Source: a phage. From it: a stretch of DNA of 64,000 nucleotides. The DNA lies in the NCBI GenBank assembly GCA_019326865.1, contig GCA_019326865.1_4101.1; one strand, 5' to 3'. The translations under genes were made by a program, and so were the position numbers. This document shows, piece by piece, positions 28-26,797 of the stretch (positions are counted from its first letter, which is position 1; every line of letters starts with the position of its first letter). A model generated the notes under the pieces. That model ran no database searches, was not told the origin of the DNA, and saw only the letters and a program-made list of their open reading frames with translations.

Positions 28-303
28 ATGCACAGTGCGAATGAGTATATTCATTTTATGGATGGTAAATTCACATTCATTGATTACAGTTCATTACAAT
101 ATCCACATCAAGATATGCCGGACTATACAATAATGAATGAGGCTGAACTATTTCAAGCTTCATTAGTATTTGACAAGAAGTACATCTGTACATTTGAAGA
201 AGTAATTACTATACAAAATGAAATGAAGGAGTATGCATCTTTGAATAAACCCAATGAAGGTATTAATCAAGAATACAAATTCAATATAGAGATTCCAAAA
301 TGA
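28..303 (+). CDS. hypothetical small protein, FamA (acidic-aromatic FQ motif family)
   Basis: 91 aa ORF; C-terminal 'NEAELFQASLVFDKKYICTFEE' matches FamA motif. Confidence 0.55.
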   Translation: MHSANEYIHFMDGKFTFIDYSSLQYPHQDMPDYTIMNEAELFQASLVFDKKYICTFEEVITIQNEMKEYASLNKPNEGINQEYKFNIEIPK

Positions 304-659
304 CATATGATTATTCTATGTACTATTATAAGTTACCTAAAGGATGGGACTTGTGCTGTAATCTTATTAAGGGAGACTCGGAACATGAGTTGAATTTATA
401 TATGCACTACAAAGATTCTTGTTTTAAATTTATTCATGTATCACATGATGACTATGACTATGAATCTGAGAGTCTTATAGATTATACAGTACTGGACGAT
501 GGCGAACTATTTCAGGAAGCATTAGTGTTTGATAAGAATAAGTACTCCTGTACATTTGAAGAAATGGTTTCTTTGCAAACTGAAATGAAGAGATTTGAAA
601 AAGAAAACGTATTTAATCCATCCCCATCAAGAACGAATAATTATTATTTCAATATATGA
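300..659 (+). CDS. hypothetical protein, FamA
   Basis: 119 aa; 'LDDGELFQEALVFDKNKYSCTFEE'; ATGA overlap with upstream ORF. Confidence 0.6.
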   Translation: MTYDYSMYYYKLPKGWDLCCNLIKGDSEHELNLYMHYKDSCFKFIHVSHDDYDYESESLIDYTVLDDGELFQEALVFDKNKYSCTFEEMVSLQTEMKRFEKENVFNPSPSRTNNYYFNI

Positions 660-668
660 GATTATAAA

Positions 669-1151
669 ATGACATTACAGAGTTCATTGGAAAAAGCAAA
701 GAAGATTCATGAGTACATGAATATGGCAAAAGAAGGTTCAGTTTACGGTGTTTTCAAAGACACAAGTACTCAATATTATGTGCCGGATAACCTCCTTTAT
801 AATGACTACTCAGATACAGAAACGTGCGTACTGGATACCGACCCTAAAGATTATGAATGTTTCATTGATATGCATTATGAGTACATGGTCTATATTAATG
901 ATGCAGATATTACCATATACAGTACTGACTGCGATTCTGATGACATTATAATTCCTAGTGAAGTTCTGAATGGCCCGTGGGATAGTGAAGAGTATTACTT
1001 CCAACAAAGTACTGTATACAATGAAGAAGTACTTGATGTTATTATAATTATGTGGTACTTTAAAAATATTGGTTCTGATAACTTCTATTTCGATTACAGA
1101 TACGTAAAGAAAGCTATAGATAACGATATTAATAAACCACACGGGGGTTGA
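669..1151 (+). CDS. hypothetical protein, FamA
   Basis: 160 aa; N-term 'MTLQSSLEKAKKIHEY', C-term 'EEYYFQQSTVYNEEVLDVIIIMWYFK'. Confidence 0.7.
   Translation: MTLQSSLEKAKKIHEYMNMAKEGSVYGVFKDTSTQYYVPDNLLYNDYSDTETCVLDTDPKDYECFIDMHYEYMVYINDADITIYSTDCDSDDIIIPSEVLNGPWDSEEYYFQQSTVYNEEVLDVIIIMWYFKNIGSDNFYFDYRYVKKAIDNDINKPHGG
975..1071 (+). repeat. direct repeat copy A (FamA conserved C-terminal coding segment)
   Basis: about 90 percent identical to 2375-2471 by eye, including identical 26-mer 'ccgtgggatagtgaagagtattactt'. Confidence 0.7.
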
Positions 1152-1152
1152 A

Positions 1153-1623
1153 ATGAGTTTAGAAAGAGCATTAGAGATTGCGAAGTTAATTGATTTATGC
1201 AGCAAAGAAATTGTATCAAATTGTCTCAATGGATATCTATTCAAGGAAGGTAAATCATATTGTCGAATGAGATACGATGACAGTAGTGAGTATATTCACA
1301 TGTATGAAGAAGACCTTGATGATTCCGAAATAACACTGAATGGGTGTGATGTTAATCTGGAAGATAATTACATTTACTTCAGTCGTGGTGCTGATATTTT
1401 AATACAAGAAACATCAATTCAACATGTGAATCCAGATGTATATCTTCCATATTCAGTACTGGATAATGACTGGGGAAGTGAAGAGGTTTACTTTCAGCAT
1501 AATACTATCTACGATGAAGATGTGCTTGACAAGCTTGTCATTCTGTGGTACTTTAAGAACACTGATACTCCCAACTTCTATATGGATTTGGATCTACTAC
1601 GAGTTATAAAAGAGGATATATGA
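1153..1623 (+). CDS. hypothetical protein, FamA
   Basis: 156 aa; 'MSLERALEIAKLI' and 'EEVYFQHNTIYDEDVLDKLVILWYFK'. Confidence 0.7.
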   Translation: MSLERALEIAKLIDLCSKEIVSNCLNGYLFKEGKSYCRMRYDDSSEYIHMYEEDLDDSEITLNGCDVNLEDNYIYFSRGADILIQETSIQHVNPDVYLPYSVLDNDWGSEEVYFQHNTIYDEDVLDKLVILWYFKNTDTPNFYMDLDLLRVIKEDI

Positions 1624-2063
1624 GTTTAGCAAGTGCACTTAAACTGGCACACAAAATACATCACTTCCACGATAACATAAAAAGTGGGTTCAATGGTGAT
1701 AAAGTAAGTGCATTGGGTAATGAGTATTATCTATCAGGTATAAAGACATACTCTGATGATATTTTACTTATGGGACATGATAAAGACAATACTATACAGT
1801 ACTCTTCATGTAGTCAATATACTAGTTTTATGGTATATATTCCAGGTACTAAGATTACGTTTGACACATCAAATTCACCTGTTGACTTCGGGGTACTTGA
1901 TGGCCCGTGGGGTACTGAAGAGTATTACTTCCAACAGAGTCTTATTTTCAACCAAGAAATTCTTGATTCCTTGGTTGTTTTGTGGTACTTTAAGGAATTG
2001 AATTTTGAACCATTCTTTCTTGACTGGGGAGCATGTGAGTATTTAAGTACAGGGGATTTGTAA
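1620..2063 (+). CDS. hypothetical protein, FamA
   Basis: 147 aa; 'MSLASALKLAHKIH' and 'EEYYFQQSLIFNQEILDSLVVLWYFK'; ATGA overlap. Confidence 0.7.
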   Translation: MSLASALKLAHKIHHFHDNIKSGFNGDKVSALGNEYYLSGIKTYSDDILLMGHDKDNTIQYSSCSQYTSFMVYIPGTKITFDTSNSPVDFGVLDGPWGTEEYYFQQSLIFNQEILDSLVVLWYFKELNFEPFFLDWGACEYLSTGDL

Positions 2064-2551
2064 TGTCGTTACAAAGTGCATTAAAAGAAGCAAAGAAAAT
2101 CCATGAGTACATGATTATGGTACAAGAAGGTTCAGTCCCAGGTGTGTATAAAACATCTGATACTGAATTTTTTGTAAAAGACCGTGACGATTATGATGAG
2201 TCAGAGATATGTGCAGAAACGTTAGTACTGCACACTGATACTGGTGATAGTGATAACTGTGAATATCATATGTACAATCAATACATTAGTTATTGCCGTA
2301 ATGAAGATATTACCATCTACAACACAGATATTGATGCTGATGACACTATCATTCCGTATTCAGTACTGGAAGGTCCGTGGGATAGTGAAGAGTATTACTT
2401 TCAGAATAGTACTATCTACAATGAAGAAGAACTGGATGTTATTGTGATTATGTGGTACTTTAAAAGTATTGACTCCAGTAGTTTCTATTTTGATTATGAA
2501 TATGTAGAGAATACAGTAGGAGAAGGTAATGTCATTACAAAGTGCTCTTGA
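2063..2551 (+). CDS. hypothetical protein, FamA (close paralog of 669-1151)
   Basis: 162 aa; 'MSLQSALKEAKKIHEY', 'EEYYFQNSTIYNEEELDVIVIMWYFK'; about 90 percent nt identity to 975-1071. Confidence 0.7.
   Translation: MSLQSALKEAKKIHEYMIMVQEGSVPGVYKTSDTEFFVKDRDDYDESEICAETLVLHTDTGDSDNCEYHMYNQYISYCRNEDITIYNTDIDADDTIIPYSVLEGPWDSEEYYFQNSTIYNEEELDVIVIMWYFKSIDSSSFYFDYEYVENTVGEGNVITKCS
2375..2471 (+). repeat. direct repeat copy B
   Basis: paralogous to 975-1071; N-terminal segments 669-750 and 2063-2145 also similar. Confidence 0.7.
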
Positions 2552-2975
2552 AAAAGCAAAAGAACTACATGGATACTTTGAAGATATAAAGGCAGGAAAG
2601 TTCAAAGAAGTATACAAAGCCGAGAACGGTAACTACTACAAAGATGAAATATATAATAATTCCGTTGGTGTAAGGGTTATTCTTGGGTTGAATTCCAATA
2701 GTCCTGTGTCGTTTTCTGAATACAATAGAGATGCAGAATTCATTAGTTATGTTGAAAATGGTAGCATTCGTTTTATTAATAGACAAAAACCATTAATTTT
2801 GAATTATGAAGTTCTGGATGGTCAATGGGATAATGAAGAGTATTACTTCCAAAACAGTACTGTATACGACGATGAAGTACTTGAAGCATTAGTTATTATG
2901 TGGTACTTCAAGAGTATTAACTGTCCTCGATTTTATTTGGATTTCGAAGAACTTGGTAAAGATCCAGAGGTATAG
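2529..2975 (+). CDS. hypothetical protein, FamA
   Basis: 148 aa; 'MSLQSALEKAKELH', 'EEYYFQNSTVYDDEVLEALVIMWYFK'; GGAG RBS. Confidence 0.7.
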   Translation: MSLQSALEKAKELHGYFEDIKAGKFKEVYKAENGNYYKDEIYNNSVGVRVILGLNSNSPVSFSEYNRDAEFISYVENGSIRFINRQKPLILNYEVLDGQWDNEEYYFQNSTVYDDEVLEALVIMWYFKSINCPRFYLDFEELGKDPEV

Positions 2976-2976
2976 A

Positions 2977-3291
2977 ATGAAAAACTTATTCAGTGTTCAG
3001 TACGTTCCAGGTGAAATTAGTTTATTGTATCTCTTTGACCATGATAATTCATTATTACTAGTAGTAAAGAAATGTCAAGCTAGTTCGTTTGTTGAATACA
3101 TTCACGATAATGAATATATACCTGATTTTTTAGAGTGCGATTATTACGATGATCATGAATCATTTATTTTTCAGGAATCGCTAGTATGGGACAAATCGAT
3201 TAACTTCTTTACGTTAATTGAATTACAAAAGCAAGTGAAGTATCATTGGGATTATTTAATTACACAGGATTACATTGAGATAGAAATATAA
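2977..3291 (+). CDS. hypothetical protein, FamA-like
   Basis: ATG after GAGG (track ORF began at TTG 2953); 'HESFIFQESLVWDK'. Confidence 0.55.
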   Translation: MKNLFSVQYVPGEISLLYLFDHDNSLLLVVKKCQASSFVEYIHDNEYIPDFLECDYYDDHESFIFQESLVWDKSINFFTLIELQKQVKYHWDYLITQDYIEIEI

Positions 3292-3599
3292 TGACTAAAA
3301 ATGAATTTGATTCACTTTGTACTGTTTATAATTCATTAACAGAAATACCTAACTTTATTAGTTATATTTCAGCTTTAAATCACATTATGCATAGTTTTGA
3401 ACAATCGTTTGAGGAGAAATATGCTGGAAGAAAAGTTCTATGTCATATGCCAATGTACTTAGGAGATGGTGAGCCTTACACTACAAGTACTACATGTGAA
3501 ATAAAAAAATATAATATATTATTGGGTACTATAGAATTCACAGTATCCAATGGCGGTAGTTATATGTACTTTAGAGATGGAGTGGTTGAATTATTATGA
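3291..3599 (+). CDS. hypothetical protein
   Basis: 102 aa ORF, stop-start overlap with neighbours, no recognised motif. Confidence 0.45.
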   Translation: MTKNEFDSLCTVYNSLTEIPNFISYISALNHIMHSFEQSFEEKYAGRKVLCHMPMYLGDGEPYTTSTTCEIKKYNILLGTIEFTVSNGGSYMYFRDGVVELL

Positions 3600-4045
3600 G
3601 TTACGAAAGTGCAATCAAGAAAGCAAATGATATTCTACGCGTCGTTCAATTCTTCAAAGAAAATCCTGAATACGTAGATGATAAAAACCAAGAGCACGAT
3701 GAGAGATTGAGACGAAAAATTATCTCTTTATTTGACACTAATAAAGATAATTGGAGTCTAATTGAGTTAGCATACGATTATATTTCATTGAACCGAAATG
3801 ATGATGTAGTTAAGATAGAAAGGCATGAATCAGAAGAATCTTTTAAAATTTCAGATATTTTATCCCTGAGTACTGAAGAAGGGTACTTCCAGGGTAGCAC
3901 TCTTTATAATGAAGAAACACTTGACAATCTATGCACATTCAGTGTAATATATCAGAAATCTGTACTAGATATATTTTATCTTGACACTGCTGAACTGCAT
4001 ACCCTAACCAATTTTGTTACTACCGAAGAGGCTACATTCGAGTGA
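3596..4045 (+). CDS. hypothetical protein, FamA
   Basis: 149 aa; 'MSYESAIKKAN', 'EEGYFQGSTLYNEETLD'. Confidence 0.65.
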   Translation: MSYESAIKKANDILRVVQFFKENPEYVDDKNQEHDERLRRKIISLFDTNKDNWSLIELAYDYISLNRNDDVVKIERHESEESFKISDILSLSTEEGYFQGSTLYNEETLDNLCTFSVIYQKSVLDIFYLDTAELHTLTNFVTTEEATFE

Positions 4046-4578
4046 TGAAAGTTAACATTAATGACTTTGATGCATTACAAGATTTATCAAAAAAGATTCG
4101 CACCATCGTACCAGTACTTAAAAAATGCAGTACTGGTTTAATCGATCCTAGTTCTGTTGTCAATGAGAAGTACAATTTTCATCGTGTATTACAGGGGACA
4201 GGTGCATTTCAGAAGTGTGAGGTACGTGAGAAACATGTAATTGATACATCGTTGTTTTCTATTGGTGCACCTGTGTCAAACAATACTATTTTCCTGGATG
4301 CATCTGGAAATATTCAACAATTAACATTTAAGAAAAGGAAAAAGAATAATAACATTGGTGTGTACGCGATGAAGTGGGGACAGCCAGCGTTGATGCGTGA
4401 CATTCACATTCCTAAGTACAATTTCAATGCATTTGAAGAACAGTGTTTTCAACTTTCTTGTACTGACCCTGACTATGCTATCATTCAATTCTATATGGAA
4501 TTGCAGATTGCATTTAATAGTAATTTGTATATTAACTTATTGGCAATGAACATAGATGAAGTATTCAAAAACATTTAA
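4045..4578 (+). CDS. hypothetical protein, FamA-like
   Basis: ATG 4045 (track start 4042 is GTG); 'EEQCFQLSCTDPDY'. Confidence 0.55.
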   Translation: MKVNINDFDALQDLSKKIRTIVPVLKKCSTGLIDPSSVVNEKYNFHRVLQGTGAFQKCEVREKHVIDTSLFSIGAPVSNNTIFLDASGNIQQLTFKKRKKNNNIGVYAMKWGQPALMRDIHIPKYNFNAFEEQCFQLSCTDPDYAIIQFYMELQIAFNSNLYINLLAMNIDEVFKNI

Positions 4579-4774
4579 TCGAATTGAATACATGAGAACT
4601 GTGAGAGCGGTGTGGAATATATGGTACACTACTAAACCAAAAATGGATTACCATGATTTTAAGCTCTTGTTCTTTGTTGGCTCTAACAAACAGGATGTTG
4701 CAATGAAGGGTTATATTCAGCACTTACAGGAACTAATCCAGAAGAGAATATATGAAAATAATAGACCAAAATGA
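4556..4774 (+). CDS. hypothetical small protein
   Basis: 72 aa ORF, weak RBS, start uncertain (alt ATG 4592). Confidence 0.35.
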   Translation: MKYSKTFNRIEYMRTVRAVWNIWYTTKPKMDYHDFKLLFFVGSNKQDVAMKGYIQHLQELIQKRIYENNRPK

Positions 4775-4943
4775 CATTGCTAAACTATTCAATATATATT
4801 CTACTAGAATGATGCAAACAGATTCATATAGTACTAAATTCAAAGAGTTGAAAGTACTGATGTACTTGGGAACACAATATCAGGAACAAGTTATTTTAGA
4901 ATATATTAATTCATTAAAGAAGGATATCCGTGATGTACGATGA
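4752..4943 (+). CDS. hypothetical small protein
   Basis: 63 aa ORF in co-directional gene train. Confidence 0.35.
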   Translation: MKIIDQNDIAKLFNIYSTRMMQTDSYSTKFKELKVLMYLGTQYQEQVILEYINSLKKDIRDVR

Positions 4944-5493
4944 TTTAGATCTTGCGTTTGAACGCATGAAAATTTTAATGCAATGCAATGAAATGCATGA
5001 GACAATCCGTCGCACCAAAGGGATTGAATATACAAGTAAACTATTCTCATACGAAAGTCGTCGAGGGATGGATCATTTTTACTGCACTGATTGTTCAAAG
5101 TTTTCAGTACTGAAATATTATCATCCTACTGTTTCCAATAATAGTTTAATATCCACATATGACGGTGATCTGTTTAGTGTAATGTATGACACATTACATC
5201 CATCAATTTCAATATATAAAGATTGCGATAGTAGTCTATCGTATATAATTGAAGATTACTTATCTCCTAATACTGAAGAGAATATATTTCAAAACAGTGT
5301 ATTGCATGATGAATTAAGTATAAAATGCATCTATATGTTCAATAAGTTAAAAGAATACGTTGATAATAATTACTTAATTGATGAGTTAGCTGTGTTTTCG
5401 GTTTCAGTTTTCAATACAAATGATGTTGATATGAAATACTATAATGAAATTTGTAAAGTACATAACATGTATAAGGAACTCTTATGCTACTAA
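4930..5493 (+). CDS. hypothetical protein, FamA-like
   Basis: 187 aa; 'TEENIFQNSVLHDE'. Confidence 0.55.
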   Translation: MMYDDLDLAFERMKILMQCNEMHETIRRTKGIEYTSKLFSYESRRGMDHFYCTDCSKFSVLKYYHPTVSNNSLISTYDGDLFSVMYDTLHPSISIYKDCDSSLSYIIEDYLSPNTEENIFQNSVLHDELSIKCIYMFNKLKEYVDNNYLIDELAVFSVSVFNTNDVDMKYYNEICKVHNMYKELLCY

Positions 5494-6086
5494 ATGCCAA
5501 TAAATGTTGTAGTGCAGATGTGCATTTGTTTTTTAAGAAATTGGCAAATGATATTATATATATGCAGGAAATGATTTACCACAAACGAACAGATTTAGAA
5601 AAAGCATTAGTACAGTTCTCCTTTATGCTTGATGGTGATATATTTCTACATGGTGATACATTGCGAACAGTACTGGACGGAAATTCAAATAGAAGTTTCA
5701 TTTGTACAAATAATAAATTTTCTTCCACGATGTGCCGTACTTTTTATAATCCTGATTCGGACTTATATCAAGTGTCGTATTCTAAAGGTGCAGTTGAATC
5801 ATCATATTGTGATAGTTCAGCTTTAGGTAAAAGTCGTCCATATATGCAATCATTTGAAATTGAACTCATCAGTACTGATGAAGATGCAATGTTCACAAAT
5901 GATATAACGATGGATCGTGAATCTGCAATGATATATATTACAAATTCTATGCATACATTCTTTCAACGATTAGAATTTGATAATGTATATATATCAAATG
6001 TAAATATTTTCAATGATCTGTGTCAGTACTTGAAAAGTGTTTGTGATTTTGATGAAAGCTATTGTAAGCTTTATACTGAGGTATAA
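5484..6086 (+). CDS. hypothetical protein
   Basis: 200 aa ORF, weak FamA resemblance. Confidence 0.5.
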   Translation: MLLNANKCCSADVHLFFKKLANDIIYMQEMIYHKRTDLEKALVQFSFMLDGDIFLHGDTLRTVLDGNSNRSFICTNNKFSSTMCRTFYNPDSDLYQVSYSKGAVESSYCDSSALGKSRPYMQSFEIELISTDEDAMFTNDITMDRESAMIYITNSMHTFFQRLEFDNVYISNVNIFNDLCQYLKSVCDFDESYCKLYTEV

Positions 6087-6091
6087 AACAA

Positions 6092-6454
6092 ATGAACACA
6101 TTAAGTATTACATACTATACAACTAAAAAATTAGTTACTTGTTTAATATCATTGAAGTCAAAAAATGATGATATGTTTGATATGGCTGCATATGAATTAG
6201 AATTATCAGAAGATGGTTTCAAGATCTATGAAGTATATAGCTATGTTCGTGAAGATGTAATTGACACTACACTAATGCAAGAGGATGAGTTATTCCAAGA
6301 AAGTTTAGTATGGGATAATAAGTACGATTGTAACTTTGATTTCTTATGTTTAATCCAAAAAGAAATGAAAAGAATCTTTGATAATTATCCAATCAAACGT
6401 TTCAGTACTGCACCTGAGCAATATAAAAGGATTATATTCACCTATGAAGATTGA
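6092..6454 (+). CDS. hypothetical protein, FamA
   Basis: 120 aa; 'QEDELFQESLVWDNKYDCNFD'. Confidence 0.6.
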   Translation: MNTLSITYYTTKKLVTCLISLKSKNDDMFDMAAYELELSEDGFKIYEVYSYVREDVIDTTLMQEDELFQESLVWDNKYDCNFDFLCLIQKEMKRIFDNYPIKRFSTAPEQYKRIIFTYED

Positions 6455-6821
6455 ATTTGAAGTTATTACATATAGTATAGGTGATGGTATCCGTTGCTAC
6501 GTACAAGCAAGGCATATTGTTCCTGATGATAAACTGTCACCCAAAAGTTTCCTTATTACACAAGAACTCTTAGATATTAACAGAGAGAACAAGTATACAT
6601 ATTATCTCACTAAGGGTTATTGTGGTTCGCGTGGTTTTAATATTGTAGCTGTTTCTAGAGATGAAATTGATGATTTAACTGAGTACGGTGAAGAAGAGAT
6701 GTTCCAGTACAGTACTGTTTTTAATGATCTGGATGTGTTTCTGTTACGAAAAATACAACACATTATGCAAGAATGTTTGCATCATAAGAGAGGTATTGTA
6801 TGCGACGTGAAATTGAATTAG
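6444..6821 (+). CDS. hypothetical protein, FamA
   Basis: internal ATG 6444 chosen over overlapping 6378; 'GEEEMFQYSTVFNDLD'. Confidence 0.55.
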   Translation: MKIEFEVITYSIGDGIRCYVQARHIVPDDKLSPKSFLITQELLDINRENKYTYYLTKGYCGSRGFNIVAVSRDEIDDLTEYGEEEMFQYSTVFNDLDVFLLRKIQHIMQECLHHKRGIVCDVKLN

Positions 6822-7141
6822 TTAAAGTAATGTACGCTACTCATATTAAACTACTACTTGTGAAATTTGATTATAATAAAAAACATAATGATTTCTATAC
6901 GTTGATTCGTGATGAAAATTCATTCTCCTTGCGATGCAACAATATACAGTGGACGATAAATGATTTTTCTTCACTTGACGAAGGTGAATTATTTCAAGAA
7001 TCATTAGTTCTTAATAGTAATATAAAAATTGATATAGAAGCTATTAAAAAATACCAGATTTTATTAAACAAAATTATGAATTGTTATCCATGTGAAATAG
7101 GCGGTAATATGCAGTTCAAATCAAAAATGTATGAATTATGA
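6800..7141 (+). CDS. hypothetical protein, FamA
   Basis: 113 aa; 'DEGELFQESLVLN'. Confidence 0.55.
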   Translation: MRREIELVKVMYATHIKLLLVKFDYNKKHNDFYTLIRDENSFSLRCNNIQWTINDFSSLDEGELFQESLVLNSNIKIDIEAIKKYQILLNKIMNCYPCEIGGNMQFKSKMYEL

Positions 7142-7148
7142 GGTTTAT

Positions 7149-7685
7149 ATGTTAGATGAAAAAATGAACGCTGGAACTCAATATAATCATCTTAAGTTGG
7201 ATACATTTGAATCAGCTATCAGTACTGCACAAGATATTATCGATATTATTAAGTACATTAAAGAAAATAAGTTAAAATGTGTGAAAACACCCGAACGTAC
7301 AATGTATAAAGATGACTGTATTCACGTATCTGTTGTTAATCCAAAAGATAAGGATGGTAATAGAGATTTCTATAATAACAGTGAGCAGTTCGAATGTGAA
7401 TATGATCCAGAATTCAGAGGCGGTTTCATGTGTTACAGTATGAAGGATACCTCACACATTGAGATACGTTCATCTAAAGGTGGCATACGTACATTAGAGT
7501 TCATTGATATAGTTTTAAATCAGGAATACTACTTTCAACTATCATTATTGTTTCCTGCATACGATTTAGGAGTTCTATTCATGTATAAGTACTTTTATGA
7601 GCACTTGAATGAAGACTTCTATCTGGACTTAGAAGATTACCAATTAGTTTGGGAAGAAATGGTAGAACTTCGCAACCACCCTTGA
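7149..7685 (+). CDS. hypothetical protein, FamA
   Basis: ATG 7149 after GAGG; 'NQEYYFQLSLLF...FYLDLEDY'. Confidence 0.6.
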   Translation: MLDEKMNAGTQYNHLKLDTFESAISTAQDIIDIIKYIKENKLKCVKTPERTMYKDDCIHVSVVNPKDKDGNRDFYNNSEQFECEYDPEFRGGFMCYSMKDTSHIEIRSSKGGIRTLEFIDIVLNQEYYFQLSLLFPAYDLGVLFMYKYFYEHLNEDFYLDLEDYQLVWEEMVELRNHP

Positions 7686-7711
7686 CACCCACCGATTCTT
7701 TGTGATATAAT
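7682..7711 (+). promoter_or_regulatory. sigma70-like promoter (TTGACA-18-TGATATAAT)
   Basis: -35 TTGACA 7682-7687; extended -10 TGATATAAT 7703-7711; 33 nt upstream of CDS 7745. Confidence 0.6.
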
Positions 7712-7744
7712 CCCTTTATATTAATTTTAAAGGGTTATAACACA

Positions 7745-8221
7745 ATGTCAAACGAACTCACATTCACCAATGCACAAAAGATAGCAAAAGACATTATCAG
7801 GGTTTATAAATTCCTTGCGAATGTTACTGAAGATTTTTTAATTGATAAAAATAAAGTTATTAAGCGAAATGGATACCTTTCCTTTATGGATGGGTTGCTC
7901 TATAGTTCAGATGAGTCAGCTTGTAGTATTAGAGTACTTGATACTGTACCAAGTGGTGATTTTATTTCATACCATTTTCCAAGTTCAGATAAGTTCAAAT
8001 ACTACAATAGTATTCTCATAGCAGAAGACTTTGATACGATTGTAATTAACACTGAAGAAGAGTTCTTCCAGTACAGTACTGTGTACCCAGAGAGGATTGT
8101 TTTCAGTTCAGTGATTTACACTACCCTTAAAAATGAACTAAATTCCGATAGTGATCATTTCTACTTGGACCTGAATAATATCGATTGTATTATTGAGTAC
8201 ATGGAGAAAAATGGTTTATGA
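7745..8221 (+). CDS. hypothetical protein, FamA
   Basis: 158 aa; 'EEEFFQYSTVYPE...HFYLDL'; sigma70-like promoter at 7682-7711. Confidence 0.7.
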   Translation: MSNELTFTNAQKIAKDIIRVYKFLANVTEDFLIDKNKVIKRNGYLSFMDGLLYSSDESACSIRVLDTVPSGDFISYHFPSSDKFKYYNSILIAEDFDTIVINTEEEFFQYSTVYPERIVFSSVIYTTLKNELNSDSDHFYLDLNNIDCIIEYMEKNGL

Positions 8222-8721
8222 TTACTACAGAATATGATTACAATAGTGTCCTTGAATTTGCAGAAAATATATATCGTATTGCAAAGGAGTTCAGAAGTCC
8301 TGAGCCGTTTGGTGGTATGTTCGAATACGATGAGTTTAGTTCATCAAAAGGAAGACTTGCATTTACTAATGGTAGAGGTAATCAAATCTACACAGAGTAC
8401 TTTGATGACAATGACTTTCATCACAAAGCCGAATACATTTCATATTGCCCTGGGTCTGATTTGAAGATTCATATTGAAAGAGATATAGAAAATGTATTTG
8501 TTCCATATACTGATTTAGTCTTCATGTCAGAGGAAATGTACTTTCAGGAATCATTGATTCATGATACAAAAGTACTTAATACTATATTATTATATGGTAC
8601 ACTACTTAATCATTACAAATACAATCAAAGATTCTTTTTAGATTTAGTAGTATACCATCAATGTGTGGATTATTTGAATGCAAAATCAGACAACAATTCA
8701 GTACATGACCGATGGTTCTGA
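8218..8721 (+). CDS. hypothetical protein, FamA
   Basis: 167 aa; 'SEEMYFQESLIHD...RFFLDL'; ATGA overlap. Confidence 0.65.
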   Translation: MITTEYDYNSVLEFAENIYRIAKEFRSPEPFGGMFEYDEFSSSKGRLAFTNGRGNQIYTEYFDDNDFHHKAEYISYCPGSDLKIHIERDIENVFVPYTDLVFMSEEMYFQESLIHDTKVLNTILLYGTLLNHYKYNQRFFLDLVVYHQCVDYLNAKSDNNSVHDRWF

Positions 8722-9040
8722 ATACTTTGTTTCAAGATATGTAATAAATCACAACCATTATGTAACCTATATTCCAGAGTACAATCAATTTTATATCCAG
8801 ATTTATCAACATAATGGAAAGAGAAATGATATATATTCAGAAATAAAAATCCCTGATTATAGTTCTTTATCAGAAGAGGAATTGTTTCAGGAGAGCACTA
8901 TCAGTACTGAAGATGTGTACGAAATAATGGAGTACCAGAAGGTACTTAAACATTTTCATGAAACAAATGATATACAAATAGATATTGTTAAACCGTGGTG
9001 TTACAATACATATGAGGTAAATTATGTTAGAAATGATTAA
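8678..9040 (+). CDS. hypothetical protein, FamA
   Basis: 120 aa; 'SEEELFQESTIS'; start uncertain (alt ATG 8705). Confidence 0.5.
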   Translation: MQNQTTIQYMTDGSEYFVSRYVINHNHYVTYIPEYNQFYIQIYQHNGKRNDIYSEIKIPDYSSLSEEELFQESTISTEDVYEIMEYQKVLKHFHETNDIQIDIVKPWCYNTYEVNYVRND

Positions 9041-9437
9041 AATTATGCAACGCTGTCTTATTGACAAATACGGGATATATGGATATCGTTTAAGTGCTCC
9101 TATTGACAAAAATAAAACAACCTATGTAAGTTATAATGCTGTACAAGGGTTTGATATATTCATTAGTACTAATTATCAAATCAAACAAGCTAAAGATGTG
9201 TCTATAATGACCCCTGATGAGTTATTTCAGTACAGCTTAGTTCTTCCTACATGTATCGATTTACAACGTCTAGGAGCGATACAGAAGGTTTTACGCGAAC
9301 ATAAAGTACAACCCAATAAAGTCACGCACATTCCAGAAACAATCTTCAAAACTATAGAAGTAGAAACCCCTGATTATATGTTAAGTGATGATGAATTCTA
9401 CGAGAAGCACTTCCCTGGTAAAGTTTGGAGAGACTAA
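9024..9437 (+). CDS. hypothetical protein, FamA
   Basis: 137 aa; GAGG RBS; 'TPDELFQYSLVLP'. Confidence 0.55.
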   Translation: MLEMIKIMQRCLIDKYGIYGYRLSAPIDKNKTTYVSYNAVQGFDIFISTNYQIKQAKDVSIMTPDELFQYSLVLPTCIDLQRLGAIQKVLREHKVQPNKVTHIPETIFKTIEVETPDYMLSDDEFYEKHFPGKVWRD

Positions 9438-9919
9438 TGAACCGAAAGTACAGAGAAACTATGAAGTTCGCTAAGGAGTGTTTAGAGACATTTGATTTCA
9501 TTTTCGATAACAAAGACTCACTTGGTCATTACTTCGTAATTACAAAAAAAGAAGATGAGAGATACAAGTGTCAAAGATTAGGATACAGTATTGAGTTATC
9601 CTTAATGAGTGATGGTATGATAAACTCCATATATGAATCTGGTAAGACAGATTACATTTCATTTAGATCATGGAGTGATAATATAATGTTCTTGAGTCCT
9701 AATGGAAGTAAATATCCATTCATTAATGATTTATCAGAAGAAAGTTACTTTCAAAACAGTTTAATTTATACAGAAAAAGAACTCAAAATGTTATTCATAA
9801 TGTCGTACTTTAAAAAGTACTGTAAATTTAAATCATTATCTTTTGAGATTTCTGCGATGAAAGTATTCATTAAAAATGTAAAAGAATTAAAGAGGGCTTT
9901 TAATGTACATAGAAAATGA
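9437..9919 (+). CDS. hypothetical protein, FamA
   Basis: ATG 9437 (TAATG overlap); 'SEESYFQNSLIYTEKELKMLFIMSYFK'. Confidence 0.65.
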   Translation: MNRKYRETMKFAKECLETFDFIFDNKDSLGHYFVITKKEDERYKCQRLGYSIELSLMSDGMINSIYESGKTDYISFRSWSDNIMFLSPNGSKYPFINDLSEESYFQNSLIYTEKELKMLFIMSYFKKYCKFKSLSFEISAMKVFIKNVKELKRAFNVHRK

Positions 9920-10445
9920 GAATGTAAAATGCATCACTGACATTTGTATAAAATTAATGAAAATTTTCATTAACCCAAAATACAAGACTCGTTCTTTACG
10001 TCATAATATTGATGAGCATTGTACCATTAATATCCTAGGTAGTATTCTTGATGTAAAATATGATGGTAAACTGTTATTCGGTATAAGAGAAGAGAAAATG
10101 GATGATGCATTCTTTTCTTGTAAAGATAAATTTGAACCTTCTGATTATAAAGTAATTATTCGTGATGATAGCATCTATATTAGTAGTGATTATTCAAATT
10201 ACTTCGATAAAATATACACTGAAAACGTTGATTACCATTATGAAATGCTAGATTTACCAGTAACAGACATTGATATGGAGAGAATCAAATTTTCATTATC
10301 AGATAATGAGTACTTAGGTATACAAACATATTATTCACTACAAGGAAAGATTCCACCTGCTATGTATATAAGGATTGAGATTGGTAATGTATTCAATGAT
10401 AAGGTTATATCAATTGCTGATAAAATATTGAGGGTTGAATTATGA
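9903..10445 (+). CDS. hypothetical protein
   Basis: 180 aa ORF in array, no clear FamA motif. Confidence 0.5.
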   Translation: MYIENENVKCITDICIKLMKIFINPKYKTRSLRHNIDEHCTINILGSILDVKYDGKLLFGIREEKMDDAFFSCKDKFEPSDYKVIIRDDSIYISSDYSNYFDKIYTENVDYHYEMLDLPVTDIDMERIKFSLSDNEYLGIQTYYSLQGKIPPAMYIRIEIGNVFNDKVISIADKILRVEL

Positions 10446-11005
10446 ATGGCCATGATTACCAATTCCATAGACTAGAATTTAGACACTGTGTTGCATATGC
10501 AAAAACATTAATGTGCATCATTGACACTCTTTCATCCGAACAATTTCGTAAGGATAATGATTTATTGCTGAAAAAAGGTCGTATAACATCATCCGATATC
10601 GGTATTGAACTATTTGTTGAAATCAGTGTTGATACCGGAGACAGTACAAGGGCTGGTTGTATAGGTCATATTGGCACACATTGTTTCACATGGAATCCAA
10701 ATACAAGTCAAGTTAGAATTGATTATAGAAATTCACGTTGGGTTGATCTTAGTACTGAATCAGATTTAGAATCAGTTATGTTCCAGCTAAGTTTAATTCA
10801 CGATCCTAATGAACTTCTTTATATTATTACTTTCAGTTATCTGTTACAAAACTACGATAGTCCATCAGGGTTTTTCATAGAATCAGATATAGATGAAATT
10901 ATGGAAGAGATTCCTAGTTTAAAGAATATTCTGGAAGAAAAAGATTTCTATAAGGACTTCAGAGATTTATACGACATGCACTTGGAGTTATTTAAGAATG
11001 GATAA
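10442..11005 (+). CDS. hypothetical protein, FamA
   Basis: 187 aa; 'LESVMFQLSLIHDPNELLYIITFSY'. Confidence 0.6.
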   Translation: MNGHDYQFHRLEFRHCVAYAKTLMCIIDTLSSEQFRKDNDLLLKKGRITSSDIGIELFVEISVDTGDSTRAGCIGHIGTHCFTWNPNTSQVRIDYRNSRWVDLSTESDLESVMFQLSLIHDPNELLYIITFSYLLQNYDSPSGFFIESDIDEIMEEIPSLKNILEEKDFYKDFRDLYDMHLELFKNG

Positions 11006-11516
11006 AGATGATATTCTAATTAGACTAGTTCAGAGTTTGATAAAGTTCGCAAATAATGATATCAATACATACAAAGTAGGTGATATTGAATTCAAATCAT
11101 TTGGTATGTACGGTGATGACGAAACATATTATGCTTCAATGAAATTTCAAGAATTTCACGAGATGTTAATATCGTTATCATACGAAGATGTTGACCCAAG
11201 ATGGAGTTCCAGTATTTCACTATCGAGAATGGTAATTCGTAGTAAGCATCGTTACATTTCGTCAAAGAATACTCCTAACTTGATTAATATTGTGTTGAAT
11301 GAAAATACAAACCCCCTATCTAAATATGATATCGTACCTTTAACCGATGAAGCAATTTTTCAATTGAGTACCATTTGTGATGAAGATGTGATATCATGTA
11401 TGAAAATTTATGAGAAAGTTGGGGGTGATATTCCCATGAACTATTACCTAACTATAGATGAAACGTATCTCCAAGATGATGTTCTGGCGTACATTGACAG
11501 TGTTTTACCAAAATAA
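10998..11516 (+). CDS. hypothetical protein, FamA
   Basis: 172 aa; 'TDEAIFQLSTICDEDV'; followed by terminator. Confidence 0.6.
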   Translation: MDKDDILIRLVQSLIKFANNDINTYKVGDIEFKSFGMYGDDETYYASMKFQEFHEMLISLSYEDVDPRWSSSISLSRMVIRSKHRYISSKNTPNLINIVLNENTNPLSKYDIVPLTDEAIFQLSTICDEDVISCMKIYEKVGGDIPMNYYLTIDETYLQDDVLAYIDSVLPK

Positions 11517-11540
11517 AGACCCGTTATGGGTCTTTTTGTG
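11516..11540 (+). terminator. rho-independent terminator
   Basis: GACCC-GTTAT-GGGTC hairpin then TTTTTGTGTTT. Confidence 0.7.
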
Positions 11541-11548
11541 TTTATGGC

Positions 11549-11577
11549 TTTACAAGAGCATTCAGGTGTGTTATACT
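11549..11577 (+). promoter_or_regulatory. T4-early-like promoter (TTTACA-17-TGTTATACT)
   Basis: between terminator 11516-11540 and CDS 11593. Confidence 0.45.
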
Positions 11578-11592
11578 TGATTTCAAATAGAG

Positions 11593-12168
11593 TTGGAGGA
11601 ATCTATGAGTACTGAATTAATTAAAGAAGTTACCTTACTTCTGAAGCATTGTTTTAAGTTCATTCCTGATACTGGTTCACGCCAGTACATTAAAGTTAAT
11701 GAGAAATATAACATCAATATCCTTGTATCTGAAACTGCGAGCAGCTATGCTAACATTGAGTTGGATTCTGAAGAAAAATATACAGTATTACAAATCATAG
11801 CAGATGTACAACGTAAACAAGATTATCGTTCTTCATTTGACAACGATTATCTGTGTGTTTGCTCAAACTTCAGTGAGAATAAAATTGTGTATAAGAATTT
11901 ATACACACATGAAGTGATTGATACATATAATTATAAAATTTCATCTGATGAATACAATGTGCTAATGTTCAACGCAAACCTTTTGTATGATGCCAGTACT
12001 GTACGCTGTTTAGAGTTAGCATATAAAATTCCAAAGATCATGGAAAGAAAAGATTTGATTCACTTTAAAACTATTTTAAAATACAGTACAAAAGAATTAG
12101 AAGATTTAGTACAGGCTCTTAAGAATTTCATTAATGAACATGTACCTGTTAAATTAGAGGACTTATAA
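11593..12168 (+). CDS. hypothetical protein
   Basis: 191 aa; GGAGG RBS; promoter-like element upstream. Confidence 0.55.
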   Translation: MEESMSTELIKEVTLLLKHCFKFIPDTGSRQYIKVNEKYNINILVSETASSYANIELDSEEKYTVLQIIADVQRKQDYRSSFDNDYLCVCSNFSENKIVYKNLYTHEVIDTYNYKISSDEYNVLMFNANLLYDASTVRCLELAYKIPKIMERKDLIHFKTILKYSTKELEDLVQALKNFINEHVPVKLEDL

Positions 12169-12752
12169 TGCAAGTTGAACACATTCAAATTATGAAATTG
12201 ATGCATGACATTGCGGAACTATCTGATAAGTACGATATTACTGTTCATGAGCCTATTGGAAATTATCGACTTAAAATTGAAAACAAATCACCACATCGTT
12301 TTGGTTCTGTAACTCTTGAATATTATAAAGTTTACGGTTATGAAACGGCAAAAAAAGGTTTCTGGGATACTATGGCAATGTATATCCGTACATCAAGACG
12401 TAGAGAACAAATCGGTTCAATCACGCCACATATGATATTTGTCAATGCTGTACACAGTGATATTAATCGAATTGTTGAATCTAATTTTGGTGACGTTGAG
12501 AACGATACATATTTAGAAATTCCACCAGAACTAGATCAATGTGAAGACATTCGTGAAGCATACATTTTCCAGAGATCATTACTTGACAACTTCAATGAGT
12601 TTGAGTACTTGATGCTTTGCTATGAAACTGCAAAAGCTATTAAGACTGGTGAATTGGTAATGTATAATAATTTCATTAACTGCAAATCCGATACACTTAA
12701 AGAGTTACACACTGCCATAAAAAACATCAAGGATACATATGAACGCTTATAG
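12168..12752 (+). CDS. hypothetical protein, FamA-like
   Basis: 194 aa; 'REAYIFQRSLLDN'. Confidence 0.55.
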   Translation: MQVEHIQIMKLMHDIAELSDKYDITVHEPIGNYRLKIENKSPHRFGSVTLEYYKVYGYETAKKGFWDTMAMYIRTSRRREQIGSITPHMIFVNAVHSDINRIVESNFGDVENDTYLEIPPELDQCEDIREAYIFQRSLLDNFNEFEYLMLCYETAKAIKTGELVMYNNFINCKSDTLKELHTAIKNIKDTYERL

Positions 12753-13317
12753 TTACATGACAGAACGTCATCAGATATTATATGATATCAGTACTAAAAT
12801 GTTATCAATTGTTAGTAGTGCGAAAGAAATTGAAAAACAATACCTCATCCGTGATGTAGCAATTTCATCTAAATGTTGGTCCAATGAATATTACGATCAT
12901 GGTATTCTTACTATTTCTGGGGCTAGAAATATTTGTATTGTAAAAAATAAGAAAAAATGCAATGAAGAGTGTGAGATTAGAACCGATATACAAATTAAGG
13001 ATGATGGAAGTTTTTCACACCACCCATTCCATATTAGTACTGTTGGTGTTTTATATAATATTAAAGTACTATTCGGTGATGAAGAGTATGTGTTAAAAGC
13101 TATCAATCCAGAATCAAGTACAGTTGAAGAAGAACTGTTCCAGATGAGCACGGTTATACCTGAAGAGGTTCTTAGTACTGTTATTTTTTGTAGTTTAATT
13201 TATCATGAATACAAAAAGAACCAGTTCGATTTCCACATGTTAGGAACGTACATCTTCAATAATTTGAGCGTAGATCGTTTAAAAGCATTAAATTCAGCGA
13301 TGGATAAGGTTCTATAA
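12739..13317 (+). CDS. hypothetical protein, FamA
   Basis: 192 aa; 'VEEELFQMSTVIPEEVL'. Confidence 0.6.
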   Translation: MNAYSYMTERHQILYDISTKMLSIVSSAKEIEKQYLIRDVAISSKCWSNEYYDHGILTISGARNICIVKNKKKCNEECEIRTDIQIKDDGSFSHHPFHISTVGVLYNIKVLFGDEEYVLKAINPESSTVEEELFQMSTVIPEEVLSTVIFCSLIYHEYKKNQFDFHMLGTYIFNNLSVDRLKALNSAMDKVL

Positions 13318-13745
13318 TGACAAGAGATGATTGTTTGTACATATGGGATGTAGTTGAAAATACACTTTCAAATCCAGAAAATTATAAAACACAAAAAAGA
13401 CAGCGACACAAAACATGGATAGATTTGTTCGTTGAGGACATACATGCAGTGACTATTTGGGATTCACCGAGGGCATCAGCATCTACTCTATTGGACAATG
13501 AATGCATTGATTGCATTAATTCCACTTTTCATCTACACGGTTCTACAATTTTTGGTACATTTCTGGATATTGAAAATAAAGATGATATTGATTCACTTGC
13601 GTTACAATATCAAGTACTGTATAATACTAAATTAATTTACGATTTAGTACTAGCTTCTTATGTGTATAAATTAATGATGAAATATAATCACATTTCAGTA
13701 TCAGTTTATACCAAGGATATTCTTTCATTAAGAGACAAAACATGA
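13317..13745 (+). CDS. hypothetical protein
   Basis: 142 aa ORF, ATGA-type junctions. Confidence 0.5.
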   Translation: MTRDDCLYIWDVVENTLSNPENYKTQKRQRHKTWIDLFVEDIHAVTIWDSPRASASTLLDNECIDCINSTFHLHGSTIFGTFLDIENKDDIDSLALQYQVLYNTKLIYDLVLASYVYKLMMKYNHISVSVYTKDILSLRDKT

Positions 13746-14251
13746 GTTTATTAAATGCACGAGAATTAGTTGAGATGTATGAGATCTTATCTTCATATAA
13801 AAATTCCCCAAAAGATGTAATTCTCAACAAAAAGTTCCATGTCAATGTTGATCATATGAAAAATATAGATATGATTTCTTTAGTGGAAAGTAGTAAATCG
13901 GGTCTTGAGCGTGATATCATGCGTTTGATTTATATTACCAAACCATCATATACTAATGATAGTTCAATTAGTAATGAGACATTTTTGTACACTCCTTATA
14001 CTGATTGTACTTTAGTTTCAGTGTCTAATCAGAAACAAGATACTATCCAATTCATCAATACCAGTACTGATAACATTGAAGAAAATGAATTCCAAAACAA
14101 TACATTAAGTTCATGTAGTAGTGTTATAACCTTTATGTCATATCTGTGGTCAATAAAATCAAATGCAATTGTATATAGTTCTAATTACACACAAGATAGT
14201 ATTGTTGAATCATATAAAGCTCTGAAGGAATACTATGAAAATAACAAATGA
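13742..14251 (+). CDS. hypothetical protein, FamA-like
   Basis: 169 aa; 'MSLLNARELVEMYE', 'IEENEFQNNTLSS'. Confidence 0.55.
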   Translation: MSLLNARELVEMYEILSSYKNSPKDVILNKKFHVNVDHMKNIDMISLVESSKSGLERDIMRLIYITKPSYTNDSSISNETFLYTPYTDCTLVSVSNQKQDTIQFINTSTDNIEENEFQNNTLSSCSSVITFMSYLWSIKSNAIVYSSNYTQDSIVESYKALKEYYENNK

Positions 14252-14816
14252 TTTTTTTAAATGTTTAGTACACCCTATGCTGAGTGTTATGAAAAAATTA
14301 CAGAATCTACCGGAAGACAACGATTACAAGTTTAATCGTTTTGATTCAGATGTATTTTGTATTGAAATTGAAATGAATAATAATCGTAATTTGCATTTAA
14401 AATTCAAAGAATCGTCAAGTCCGTATTACAACTTTGATATGAATTTTAAAATAGATACTGACATTGAAGAAAACGTAATATCAAATCATACTAGCAAAAA
14501 TGGTTTTAAGCATAGAACTACTATGTACAATAATAAAAATAGTATTATATCTAAATGGTTTCACCAATTCACCAAAATTGGTGAAATTGAATATAGTGAT
14601 TTTGGTGAAGAGCAATACTTTCAGTTGAGTACAATTCATGAACTTCCACCATATGATTATGTTAAAACATGGTTTGATATTCATAATATAATTGATGATG
14701 CAATCAAACTTCCATTTGGGGTATCAATATCATATACTGCTCCTAAAACATTTGTTTTTACGGAAGATATGATTATGAAAAAGATATGGGCAATTATCCC
14801 ACTTATGATGGATTAA
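14235..14816 (+). CDS. hypothetical protein, FamA
   Basis: 193 aa; 'GEEQYFQLSTIHELPPYDY'; terminator downstream. Confidence 0.6.
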   Translation: MKITNDFFKCLVHPMLSVMKKLQNLPEDNDYKFNRFDSDVFCIEIEMNNNRNLHLKFKESSSPYYNFDMNFKIDTDIEENVISNHTSKNGFKHRTTMYNNKNSIISKWFHQFTKIGEIEYSDFGEEQYFQLSTIHELPPYDYVKTWFDIHNIIDDAIKLPFGVSISYTAPKTFVFTEDMIMKKIWAIIPLMMD

Positions 14817-14820
14817 ATTT

Positions 14821-14848
14821 ATACCAGGGGTTGACTCTGGTATTTTTG
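14821..14848 (+). terminator. rho-independent terminator
   Basis: ATACCAG...CTGGTAT stem, 9-nt loop, TTTT. Confidence 0.55.
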
Positions 14849-14877
14849 TATGATACATTATCCTAAAGGAGAATTTT

Positions 14878-15429
14878 ATGAACTACAATCATGATCTTTT
14901 TACATTATGTGCATCAAAATGTGTTGATGGTTGGGCAGATAAAATCAATACCATAATTCATCGATATCTCGTCTTTAGTTCCCGTGCACGAAGTGAGGGG
15001 GCTATGGATTTCAAATATACACTATCTATTGATGGTGTAACTATCCATGCAGACGAAGAACGTCTGAGCATTAATTTGTATGATTCCTGTGTATTTGCTA
15101 TTCACCAAAAGATGGGGAAAGGATGGGGTTGTAATAACATTAACTCCAAAGCTATCTTTTGGGTTGGTCACCATCAGACAGTACTTGATCCTTCAATTAA
15201 ATCTAATCTTTTATCCGATAATATGGTTTATGATTTATTGTACTCCGAAGAACAACATTTTCAATTAAGTACATTGCATGATCTGGCACAGTACGAGGAT
15301 TGTTACAAAACATTAGAACTATGCCATTCCCTTGAACTCAAAGATAAATTGATACAAGTTTACCCTTCATTCTTTCATGAAGAAGTACAATGCACACTAG
15401 AACATATTTTATATGGGTACGACAAATGA
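14878..15429 (+). CDS. hypothetical protein, FamA
   Basis: 183 aa; AGGAG RBS; 'SEEQHFQLSTLHDLAQYED'. Confidence 0.6.
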   Translation: MNYNHDLFTLCASKCVDGWADKINTIIHRYLVFSSRARSEGAMDFKYTLSIDGVTIHADEERLSINLYDSCVFAIHQKMGKGWGCNNINSKAIFWVGHHQTVLDPSIKSNLLSDNMVYDLLYSEEQHFQLSTLHDLAQYEDCYKTLELCHSLELKDKLIQVYPSFFHEEVQCTLEHILYGYDK

Positions 15430-18029: not shown

Positions 18030-18390
18030 ACTAATAGAGGCGATCACTAAGGAGTCAAAATACCACAAAGGGATTCGTCTATATTTTATAGATCTTGGTT
18101 CAATGGACGGCATATACATTTATGGTTCACAATCTTTATCTTATGATGTAATGCCAAAAAAATATGTAAAAATCTTTTTAGGGTCAAATAAGAAAACTTT
18201 CTTGACAATTAATGATAAAAACGTTATTATGAATTCTTTGGGTCATGATAAAGTGAAAATTGATCTAAACACGCTGGATGATATTGATTTTTTTCAATAC
18301 GAATGTTTAGGTGTTGACTTACATGGAATCAGTAGTGATATGATAAAATCATTAATCAAATATTTCGAAGGCGTTCATAAATGTATCTAA
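17977..18390 (+). CDS. hypothetical protein
   Basis: 137 aa; 'DIDFFQYECLG'; 53 nt overlap, start uncertain. Confidence 0.45.
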   Translation: MHLSNSEKKETRLTTTDELIEAITKESKYHKGIRLYFIDLGSMDGIYIYGSQSLSYDVMPKKYVKIFLGSNKKTFLTINDKNVIMNSLGHDKVKIDLNTLDDIDFFQYECLGVDLHGISSDMIKSLIKYFEGVHKCI

Positions 18391-18887
18391 CTAAATCGAT
18401 GAAAAATTCATTTGATAAAATCAAGAGTTGTCTTGATGGAGAGAATATTACAAGTGTTACACAATCTGCTGACCAAATTCAATGCAGTTCAAGTGATTGT
18501 ACTGTTATTTTGGGTTTACATAGTCTGCGTTTGTCAATAGTAAATAATATTGACAACACTGCTATTGTAATCACACCGTGCAATATTCAAAATGAGAATG
18601 GTGTATATCTTCATCACATGGGAACCGCATTTTATATTTTCAATACAAACAATACACTCGAAACAATCGTTAAGGAATATAATACACTTAACATTGATCC
18701 TGGTGAGTTATTTCAGATGAGTACGTTGTATTCATGTGATTTTACTGATACCTCACGTATTTTACCATTTTTCTTGGAAATTTTAAAGAAAATGGATAAT
18801 TTAAATCGTCAATACAATAAAAAAATGGTTCCAGAAGCTATATTAAATATTACTGATGCTATGGAAAAATATAAAGCAGTGCCTTAA
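18381..18887 (+). CDS. hypothetical protein, FamA
   Basis: 168 aa; 'DPGELFQMSTLYS'. Confidence 0.55.
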   Translation: MYLTKSMKNSFDKIKSCLDGENITSVTQSADQIQCSSSDCTVILGLHSLRLSIVNNIDNTAIVITPCNIQNENGVYLHHMGTAFYIFNTNNTLETIVKEYNTLNIDPGELFQMSTLYSCDFTDTSRILPFFLEILKKMDNLNRQYNKKMVPEAILNITDAMEKYKAVP

Positions 18888-26787: not shown

Positions 26788-26797
26788 GAGGTTACAT

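Follow-up and report, generated by a model that had tools for sequence, protein, structure and literature searches.

The first kilobases of the DNA studied here, a 64,000-nucleotide stretch of a phage genome (contig GCA_019326865.1_4101.1, the whole of which we refer to as the window), carry a run of closely packed paralogous genes. The window comes from an Asteriusvirus, a 121Q/PBECO4-like Escherichia coli jumbo phage. Its first 6 kb are 97% identical to Escherichia phage UE-S1 and approximately 92% identical to 121Q, PBECO4, phAPEC6, and other Asteriusvirus jumbo phages of about 350 kb. The G+C content of the window is approximately 32%, its GC skew is positive throughout, and the plus strand holds most of the open reading frames (ORFs) of at least 70 amino acids. 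We focused on positions 669–2975, where five tandem plus-strand paralogues, here named g1–g5, have abutting or overlapping ORFs (Table 1). An initial annotation had interpreted these genes as recent duplicates with about 90% nucleotide identity between copies. Comparisons across related phages indicate instead that the duplications are older than the sampled genus, and that the near-identity is confined to a short coding core into which paralogous sequence was probably imported on rare occasions.

All five genes match the catalogued family phrog_9317 over its full length (E-values of 3.5e-52 to 2.7e-66; profile positions 1 to 152–158 of 160). In this respect g1–g5 are simply members of the catalogue family and do not differ from it, and membership carries no functional information, as phrog_9317 and the related phrog_12674 and phrog_34017 are all annotated without function. 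A search of g1–g5 against Pfam and NCBIfam gave no match.

The repeats on which the initial annotation was based are readily confirmed. The 26-mer CCGTGGGATAGTGAAGAGTATTACTT has two exact occurrences in the window, at positions 975 and 2375, and no others, and the segments 975–1071 and 2375–2471 align without gaps and are identical at 86 of 97 positions (88.7%). g1 and g4 also resemble each other at their 5′ ends (668–781 and 2062–2175; repeat family D6), with 75% identity over 114 nucleotides, and g3 and g5 carry a related stretch (1893–1994 and 2811–2912) that is 74.5% identical over 102 nucleotides. A further pair of segments, in g1 and g5 (959–1070 and 2807–2918), is 84% identical. Such likeness is far beyond chance because g1–g5 are homologous.

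The proposed identity of about 90% between copies does not extend to the genes themselves. Identity of approximately 89% is limited to a core of about 100 nucleotides encoding VLxGPWDSEEYYFQxSTxYxEEVLDxxVIMWYFK, a peptide motif that is nearly invariant among both paralogues and orthologues. Over the whole gene, g1 and g4 are 70.9% identical in nucleotide sequence (645–1111 vs 2040–2511; 475 nucleotides aligned by blastn) and 56% identical in amino acid sequence. All other pairs among g1–g5 share 27–41% amino acid identity and align at the nucleotide level only in the core. With the g1–g4 core set apart, a blastn comparison of the 64-kb window against itself gave no match better than 84% over 113 nucleotides. 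The 1394–1400-nucleotide spacing of g1 and g4 prompted us to consider duplication of a three-gene block, a possibility that we rejected, as g2 and g5 (34% amino acid identity) are no closer to each other than other pairs. Two minus-strand ORFs, at 810–1244 (144 amino acids) and 2360–2617 (85 amino acids), were likewise rejected as mirror images of the conserved core. The stop-free run antisense to g1 varies from 44 to 115 amino acids among orthologues and is not conserved, indicating that the ORF lying over g1 is not a gene.

We compared g1–g5 with their counterparts in ten close relatives (121Q, CRJP21, SD-1_S14, CMSTMSU, EC.P1, ph0011, UE-S1, SP27, TH47, and JP4). Where intact, positional orthologues in these phages show 72–100% amino acid identity, compared to 27–58% between paralogues. 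Intact g2–g5 orthologues are found in nine of the ten relatives and an intact g1 in six. The divergent phage A4 has recognizable g1, g2, and g3 (81–96%) and g4 (61%), and the identity between g1 and g4 is approximately 56–59% at the amino acid level in every genome that contains both, A4 included. Each positional orthologue group is monophyletic in neighbor-joining trees, whether these are built from all alignment columns or from non-core columns.

Synonymous sites tell the same story. Outside the core, the Nei–Gojobori (NG86) synonymous divergence (dS) between g1 and g4 is 1.96, which amounts to saturation, and 28 of the 49 identical residues share a codon, compared to 24.7 expected from phage codon usage. 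For all ten pairs among g1–g5, dS outside the core ranges from 1.2 to 3.0 and same-codon counts equal the codon-usage expectation, whereas dS between orthologues outside the core reaches only about 0.4–0.7 at its deepest. The saturation of the paralogues, set against the shallower divergence of the orthologues, indicates that the duplications are much older than the sampled genus. The initial annotation had itself named saturated synonymous sites as the observation that would speak against recent duplication, and this is what the whole genes display, the core excepted. None of three marks of young tandem duplicates (identity over the whole unit, low dS, and lineage-specific grouping) was found.

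The core shows a different pattern. We calculated its expected identity by drawing random codons from genome usage for the actual g1 and g4 protein sequences. The observed nucleotide identity of the g1–g4 core is 88.5%, compared to 76.0% expected (standard deviation of 3.2 percentage points; P < 2e-4). The same codon appears at 21 of 24 identical residues in the g1–g4 core (12.2 expected; z = 3.75) and at 17 of 19 in the g1–g5 core (9.4 expected), and the g1–g4 dS within the core is 0.47, against the value of 1.96 outside it. The shared codons include several that are rare in this phage, namely CCG (5% of Pro codons), GAG (23% of Glu), TAC (37% of Tyr), and TTC (35% of Phe). The protein motif explains most of the core identity, but not all of it.

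Orthologue comparisons did not reveal any constraint on the nucleotide sequence itself. The fraction of synonymous differences between orthologues is 0.097 in the 26-mer, 0.152 in the rest of the core, and 0.10–0.14 elsewhere; because orthologues vary at core synonymous sites, the core is not constrained at the nucleotide level. A role for the 26-mer as a nucleotide-level element was rejected on this ground, its synonymous variation between orthologues being of ordinary extent. In several genes, the core dS between orthologues even exceeds the non-core level (0.42 vs 0.12 for g1 against UE-S1, and 1.0 vs 0.29 for g2 against 121Q), an outcome expected from the import of paralogue sequence.

Trees built from the core alone point in the same direction. 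Here the monophyly of g1, g4, and g5 is lost: the CRJP21 copy of g1 is nested within g5, and the UE-S1 copy of g1 clusters with the ph0011 copy of g4. Inspection of individual sites yielded candidate tracts. Of the 16 sites that differ between the g1 genes of CRJP21 and JP4, seven consecutive ones within 24 nucleotides all match g5 of CRJP21, and approximately 46 nucleotides around this patch are identical to g5 except for one base (exact P = 0.025 for the run; P of approximately 2e-4 for the clustering). In SP27, EC.P1, and TH47, g4 carries a 3′ patch matching g1; comparing SP27 with CRJP21, the match holds at eight of nine differing sites. In the scan for such runs the background match rate in AT-rich DNA was about 45–50%, so we discounted runs of three to five sites as noise and relied solely on the longest clustered tracts. 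Lowered core dS and incongruent tract trees, in the absence of nucleotide-level constraint, are the pattern left by interlocus gene conversion, and they support exchanges between these paralogues that would be rare, short (tens of nucleotides), and confined to the core. We read most of these events as roughly contemporary with the deepest splits between alleles of the genus.

Other explanations for the core identity were weighed against these data. A recent tandem duplication, in which g1/g4 and other pairs would be young copies of about 90% identity in an actively expanding array, would readily produce an exact 26-mer and 86 matches in 97 positions within one segment, and the absence of g1 from the clade of ph0011, TH47, and CMSTMSU can be read as a lineage-specific gain. 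We nonetheless regard it as extremely improbable, given that g1 and g4 as whole genes are only 71% identical in nucleotides and 56% in amino acids, that dS outside the core is about 2, that the two genes are already distinct in every genome with both, that no pair in the window exceeds 84% identity outside the core, and that no extra copies were seen in relatives (see below). For whole genes, synonymous saturation and positional orthology already refute it. It is also very improbable that the core nucleotide run itself acts as a DNA or RNA element, for example as a promoter within the gene, as a site of recombination or endonuclease cleavage, or as a structured RNA. An exact 26-mer containing phage-rare codons and common to several copies and phages is what such an element would look like, but its synonymous variation among orthologues (0.097 vs 0.10–0.14 elsewhere) is not reduced, g2 and the distant family members keep the peptide motif without the nucleotide run, the 26-mers contain no listed promoter-like or terminator-like site, and the antisense ORF over g1 is not conserved.

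A further alternative is selection without conversion. Here the motif would be conserved for its protein function and its codons favored for translational accuracy, speed, or co-translational folding. The near-invariance of the motif across paralogues and orthologues, the approximately 76% nucleotide identity that it gives by itself, and the preference of the E. coli host for CCG, TAC, and TTC are all in keeping with this idea. Even so, orthologue synonymous variation in the core and the 26-mer is as high as elsewhere, the shared codon string mixes host-preferred codons with non-preferred ones (GAT, AGT, GAG, TAT, and CAA), and distant superfamily members use varied codons for the same motif. 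Selection acting site by site also does not explain the multisite patches that match a paralogue, as in g1 of CRJP21 and g4 of SP27. On balance, we consider selection alone unlikely.

We favor, with a probability of roughly 0.75, an account that combines an old tandem family, selection on the motif plus occasional short-tract conversion of the core, and allelic exchange on top of both. Tandem duplication took place before the sampled genus diversified and was followed by divergence to 27–56% amino acid identity. Strong purifying selection would act on the C-terminal core motif GPWDSEEYYFQxSTxYxEEVLDxxVIMWYFK, which alone would yield approximately 76% nucleotide identity. Occasional conversion between paralogues over tens of nucleotides, mainly among g1, g4, and g5, would then keep the synonymous sites of the core unsaturated. 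Only the core has identity runs long enough to pair. Gene-by-gene allelic exchange between co-infecting phages would be superimposed on these processes. The molecular mechanism would be homologous recombination, probably via the phage's own RecA-like recombinase; a recombinase of this type has been reported in a relative (PMC11895373).

Several points weigh against this combined account. Paralogue core identity within genomes equals that between genomes (0.852 vs 0.860 for g1–g4, 0.845 vs 0.843 for g1–g5, and 0.812 vs 0.810 for g4–g5), so there is no sign of ongoing homogenization (concerted evolution), and no conversion can be confidently assigned to the window's own lineage. Because the core spans only about 36 codons, its trees and dS values carry considerable noise. 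The most convincing conversion tracts were chosen post hoc, that of CRJP21 from among roughly 190 comparisons, and the 3′ patch linking g4 and g1 fits either polarity. CCG, TAC, and TTC are optimal codons in E. coli, and part of the codon sharing could reflect selection for accurate translation of conserved residues. Of the ongoing gene conversion proposed in the initial annotation, what survives is a small number of short and mostly old events in the core; homogenization within genomes is not seen.

Interlocus gene conversion has precedents in duplicated blocks of Drosophila (PMC2588116), and tract lengths have been reviewed (PMC3924818). As in other tandem families undergoing this process, paralogue dS drops locally in the most similar segment, trees are incongruent, paralogue-matching tracts are short and clustered, and allelic diversity is raised within the tract. 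Unlike in those precedents, the tracts here are very short (approximately 24–46 nucleotides), events are rare, and concerted evolution is not observed. The setting also differs, being a lytic jumbo phage in which co-infecting genomes additionally shuffle alleles. A short near-identical stretch inside diverged paralogues does not show recent duplication, and both short-tract exchange between paralogues and allele shuffling between phages appear to operate in a large phage multigene family. The outcome is ordinary multigene-family evolution in a catalogued phage family.

In the 23 records in which a single region covers at least 80% of the 6-kb query, no extra copies were seen, and in most relatives that span the whole query the match length differs by less than 0.5%. 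The relatives examined yielded neither an extra copy nor the g1/g4 hybrid that unequal crossing-over would be expected to produce. Variation was found in the g1 slot, which in ph0011, TH47, and CMSTMSU contains an extra short-subfamily member instead of g1 (in ph0011, at 1667–2190 of the compared locus, a 61-amino acid ORF is annotated after this member) and which in Salmonella phage SD-1_S14 holds a disrupted g1 (2736–3184 of the compared locus). The g5 slot of A4 is occupied by a distant family member. The earlier suggestion that the repeats expand or contract the array thus draws some weak support from the replaced or disrupted g1, and none from additional or hybrid copies.

Poxvirus-type genomic accordions arise by rapid adaptive amplification of one gene, giving near-identical copies whose number varies between isolates. 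The phage array resembles them as a tandem, one-family array in a large double-stranded DNA virus that is plausibly linked to host interaction. It differs in that its copies are only 27–56% identical in amino acid sequence, their order is the same through most of the genus, and expansions were not observed. In the relatives examined, the only changes were replacement of g1 in one clade and its disruption in SD-1_S14.

The window differs from UE-S1 by one nucleotide in g2 and three in g5, compared to 68 in g3 and 33 in g4. The g3 product is closer to that of EC.P1 (96.6%) than to that of UE-S1 (80.6%), indicating mosaic ancestry, and g5 falls into two allele classes about 23% apart in nucleotide sequence across phages, with SP27 changing class between g4 and g5. 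Relatedness among genomes thus shifts from one gene to the next, and we conclude that co-infecting phages shuffle the array alleles through homologous exchange. On a smaller scale, g1 of phAPEC6-type phages and of SD-1_S14 contains a 21-nucleotide internal tandem duplication (TETCVLD twice) that is not found in the window, a case of slippage on a small scale within the part of the gene that encodes the variable sheet.

Table 1. Features of the g1–g5 locus and of the surrounding superfamily array (positions in the window)
Feature	Position	Strand	Basis and remarks
g1, 160 amino acids, phrog_9317	669–1151	+	ORF list; PHROG match 8e-64; closest paralogue g4
g1 orthologues	669–1151	+	83–93% amino acid identity, 7 relatives
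g2, 156 amino acids	1153–1623	+	100% identical to UE-S1 orthologue
g3, 147 amino acids	1620–2063	+	amino acid identity 96.6% to EC.P1 orthologue, only 80.6% to UE-S1
g4, 162 amino acids	2063–2551	+	AlphaFold2 model, predicted local distance difference test (pLDDT) 86.5, predicted template modeling score (pTM) 0.83
g5, 148 amino acids	2529–2975	+	23-nucleotide overlap with g4
Conserved 5′ end, start codon and N-terminal helix MxLxSALxxAKxIH	666–716	+	repeat family D4, 61–78%
Segments matching 666–716	1150–1200, 1617–1667, 2060–2110, 2526–2576	+	repeat family D4
Conserved core of g1, encodes VLNGPWDSEEYYFQQSTVYNEEVLDVIIIMWYFK	957–1100	+	repeat family D1; alignment; 26-mer at 975–1000
Conserved core of g2	1450–1593	+	repeat family D1, 72% to reference copy
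Conserved core of g3	1887–2030	+	repeat family D1, 63% to reference copy
Conserved core of g4	2357–2500	+	reference copy of repeat family D1; 26-mer at 2375–2400
Conserved core of g5	2805–2948	+	repeat family D1, 75%
Larger tandem array, 23 of 25 superfamily members	28–15429	+	iterative hidden Markov model (HMM)
Two remaining superfamily members	18381–18887, 30548–31237		iterative HMM
Perfect sigma-70 consensus promoter-like site (TTGACA, 18 nucleotides, TATAAT, with upstream TG)	7682–7711	+	consensus match
Strong hairpin and T-run terminators (predicted)	11515–11535, 14821–14843

The five genes belong to a wider superfamily, for which an iterative HMM built from window ORFs identified at least 25 members in the window. 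Nearly all of these lie in a tightly packed array that occupies roughly 15 kb of the genome. All members have the signature E-x-x-(Y/L/F/I/M)-F-Q-x-S in common; in an alignment of 31 sequences, the F and Q are invariant and the E and S are at least 90% conserved. Two architectures were recognized, one of approximately 150–190 amino acids with an N-terminal helix and one comprising short forms of approximately 90–120 amino acids (28–303, 300–659, and 6092–6454). Codon usage for the shared peptide motif varies among the more distant members. The promoter-like site at 7682–7711 sits in the one sizeable gap between genes of the array, and its position ahead of two predicted terminators suggests that the array may comprise several transcription units served by the host RNA polymerase.

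The distribution of the family is narrow. A family profile search recovered only 91 cluster representatives among 1.84 billion proteins, and tblastn with g4 located the family in 36 phage records, all of them Escherichia or Salmonella jumbo phages of 310–386 kb and nearly all classified as Asteriusvirus. A scan of IMG/VR with a degenerate form of the 26-mer matched a single contig. Our literature search found no account of this family or of its duplication dynamics. One superfamily member in phage A4 (A4_348; 2474–3010 of the compared A4 locus), with the sequence SPEEYFQESLV at the FQ motif, is annotated as a DNA ligase, which is likely a misannotation. The family motif also resembles the cleavage sites of the tobacco etch virus (TEV) protease (ExxYxQ then S or G) and of picornaviral 3C proteases (LEVLFQ then GP). 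The match to these patterns is partial, as in EEGYFQGS at 3875–3898, and the AlphaFold2 model described below places the motif in a confident helix (H109–117), so the resemblance is probably a coincidence.

The AlphaFold2 model of g4 comprises an N-terminal helix (residues 3–22), a seven-stranded sheet, and a C-terminal helical core, in which the core motif forms helices H109–117 and H121–135. The predicted fold matches no solved structure in the PDB. A Foldseek search of BFVD with the model returned only uncharacterized proteins of Rak2-like jumbo phages, and the g4 model resembles proteins from the paralogue sets of these phages (Klebsiella RaK2 H6X4L9, H6X4M2, and H6X4M3; Cronobacter GAP32; Serratia BF) in predicted fold, with Foldseek probabilities up to 1.0 and template modeling (TM) scores of 0.5–0.7. 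The consecutive accession numbers of the RaK2 proteins suggest that they, too, are encoded by neighboring genes. In sequence, these relatives differ from g4, with only 12–21% identity, and they were missed by the g4 tblastn search at E ≤ 1e-3.

As to function, the reported virion proteome of phAPEC6 includes no array protein, with nothing listed between gp347 and gp549 (PMC7247149, Table 1); the phAPEC6 orthologue of g1 is gp442c. The ratio of nonsynonymous to synonymous divergence (dN/dS) between orthologues is roughly 0.1–0.5 and occasionally near 1. By analogy with other tandem early-gene families, the array might encode diversified early intracellular effectors for host takeover or anti-defense, a suggestion that we put forward only tentatively. 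Equally tentative is a fuller version of it, in which an early, non-virion effector battery would use the helical core as a scaffold or docking element and the variable β-sheet as a specificity surface, with microconversion in the core and the shuffling of alleles between phages together generating variants combinatorially. As a large family with a confidently predicted fold that is restricted to Rak2-like phages, these proteins are a reasonable target for work on host takeover by jumbo phages.

Two further repeat systems in the window are separate from the g1–g5 family. A second, unrelated tandem array at 25947–27356 on the plus strand encodes five paralogues of approximately 91–103 amino acids that have the N-terminal motif (D/E)IQFTYK(F/V)LY in common; 26476–26787, the sole member of this array tested, gave no Pfam match. 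On the minus strand, 47152–49824 is an 890-amino acid ORF with nine Big_2 immunoglobulin-like domains, which account for an internal repeat with a 264-nucleotide period (approximately 65% identity) in the self-comparison. Its product is probably a virion decoration or fiber protein.

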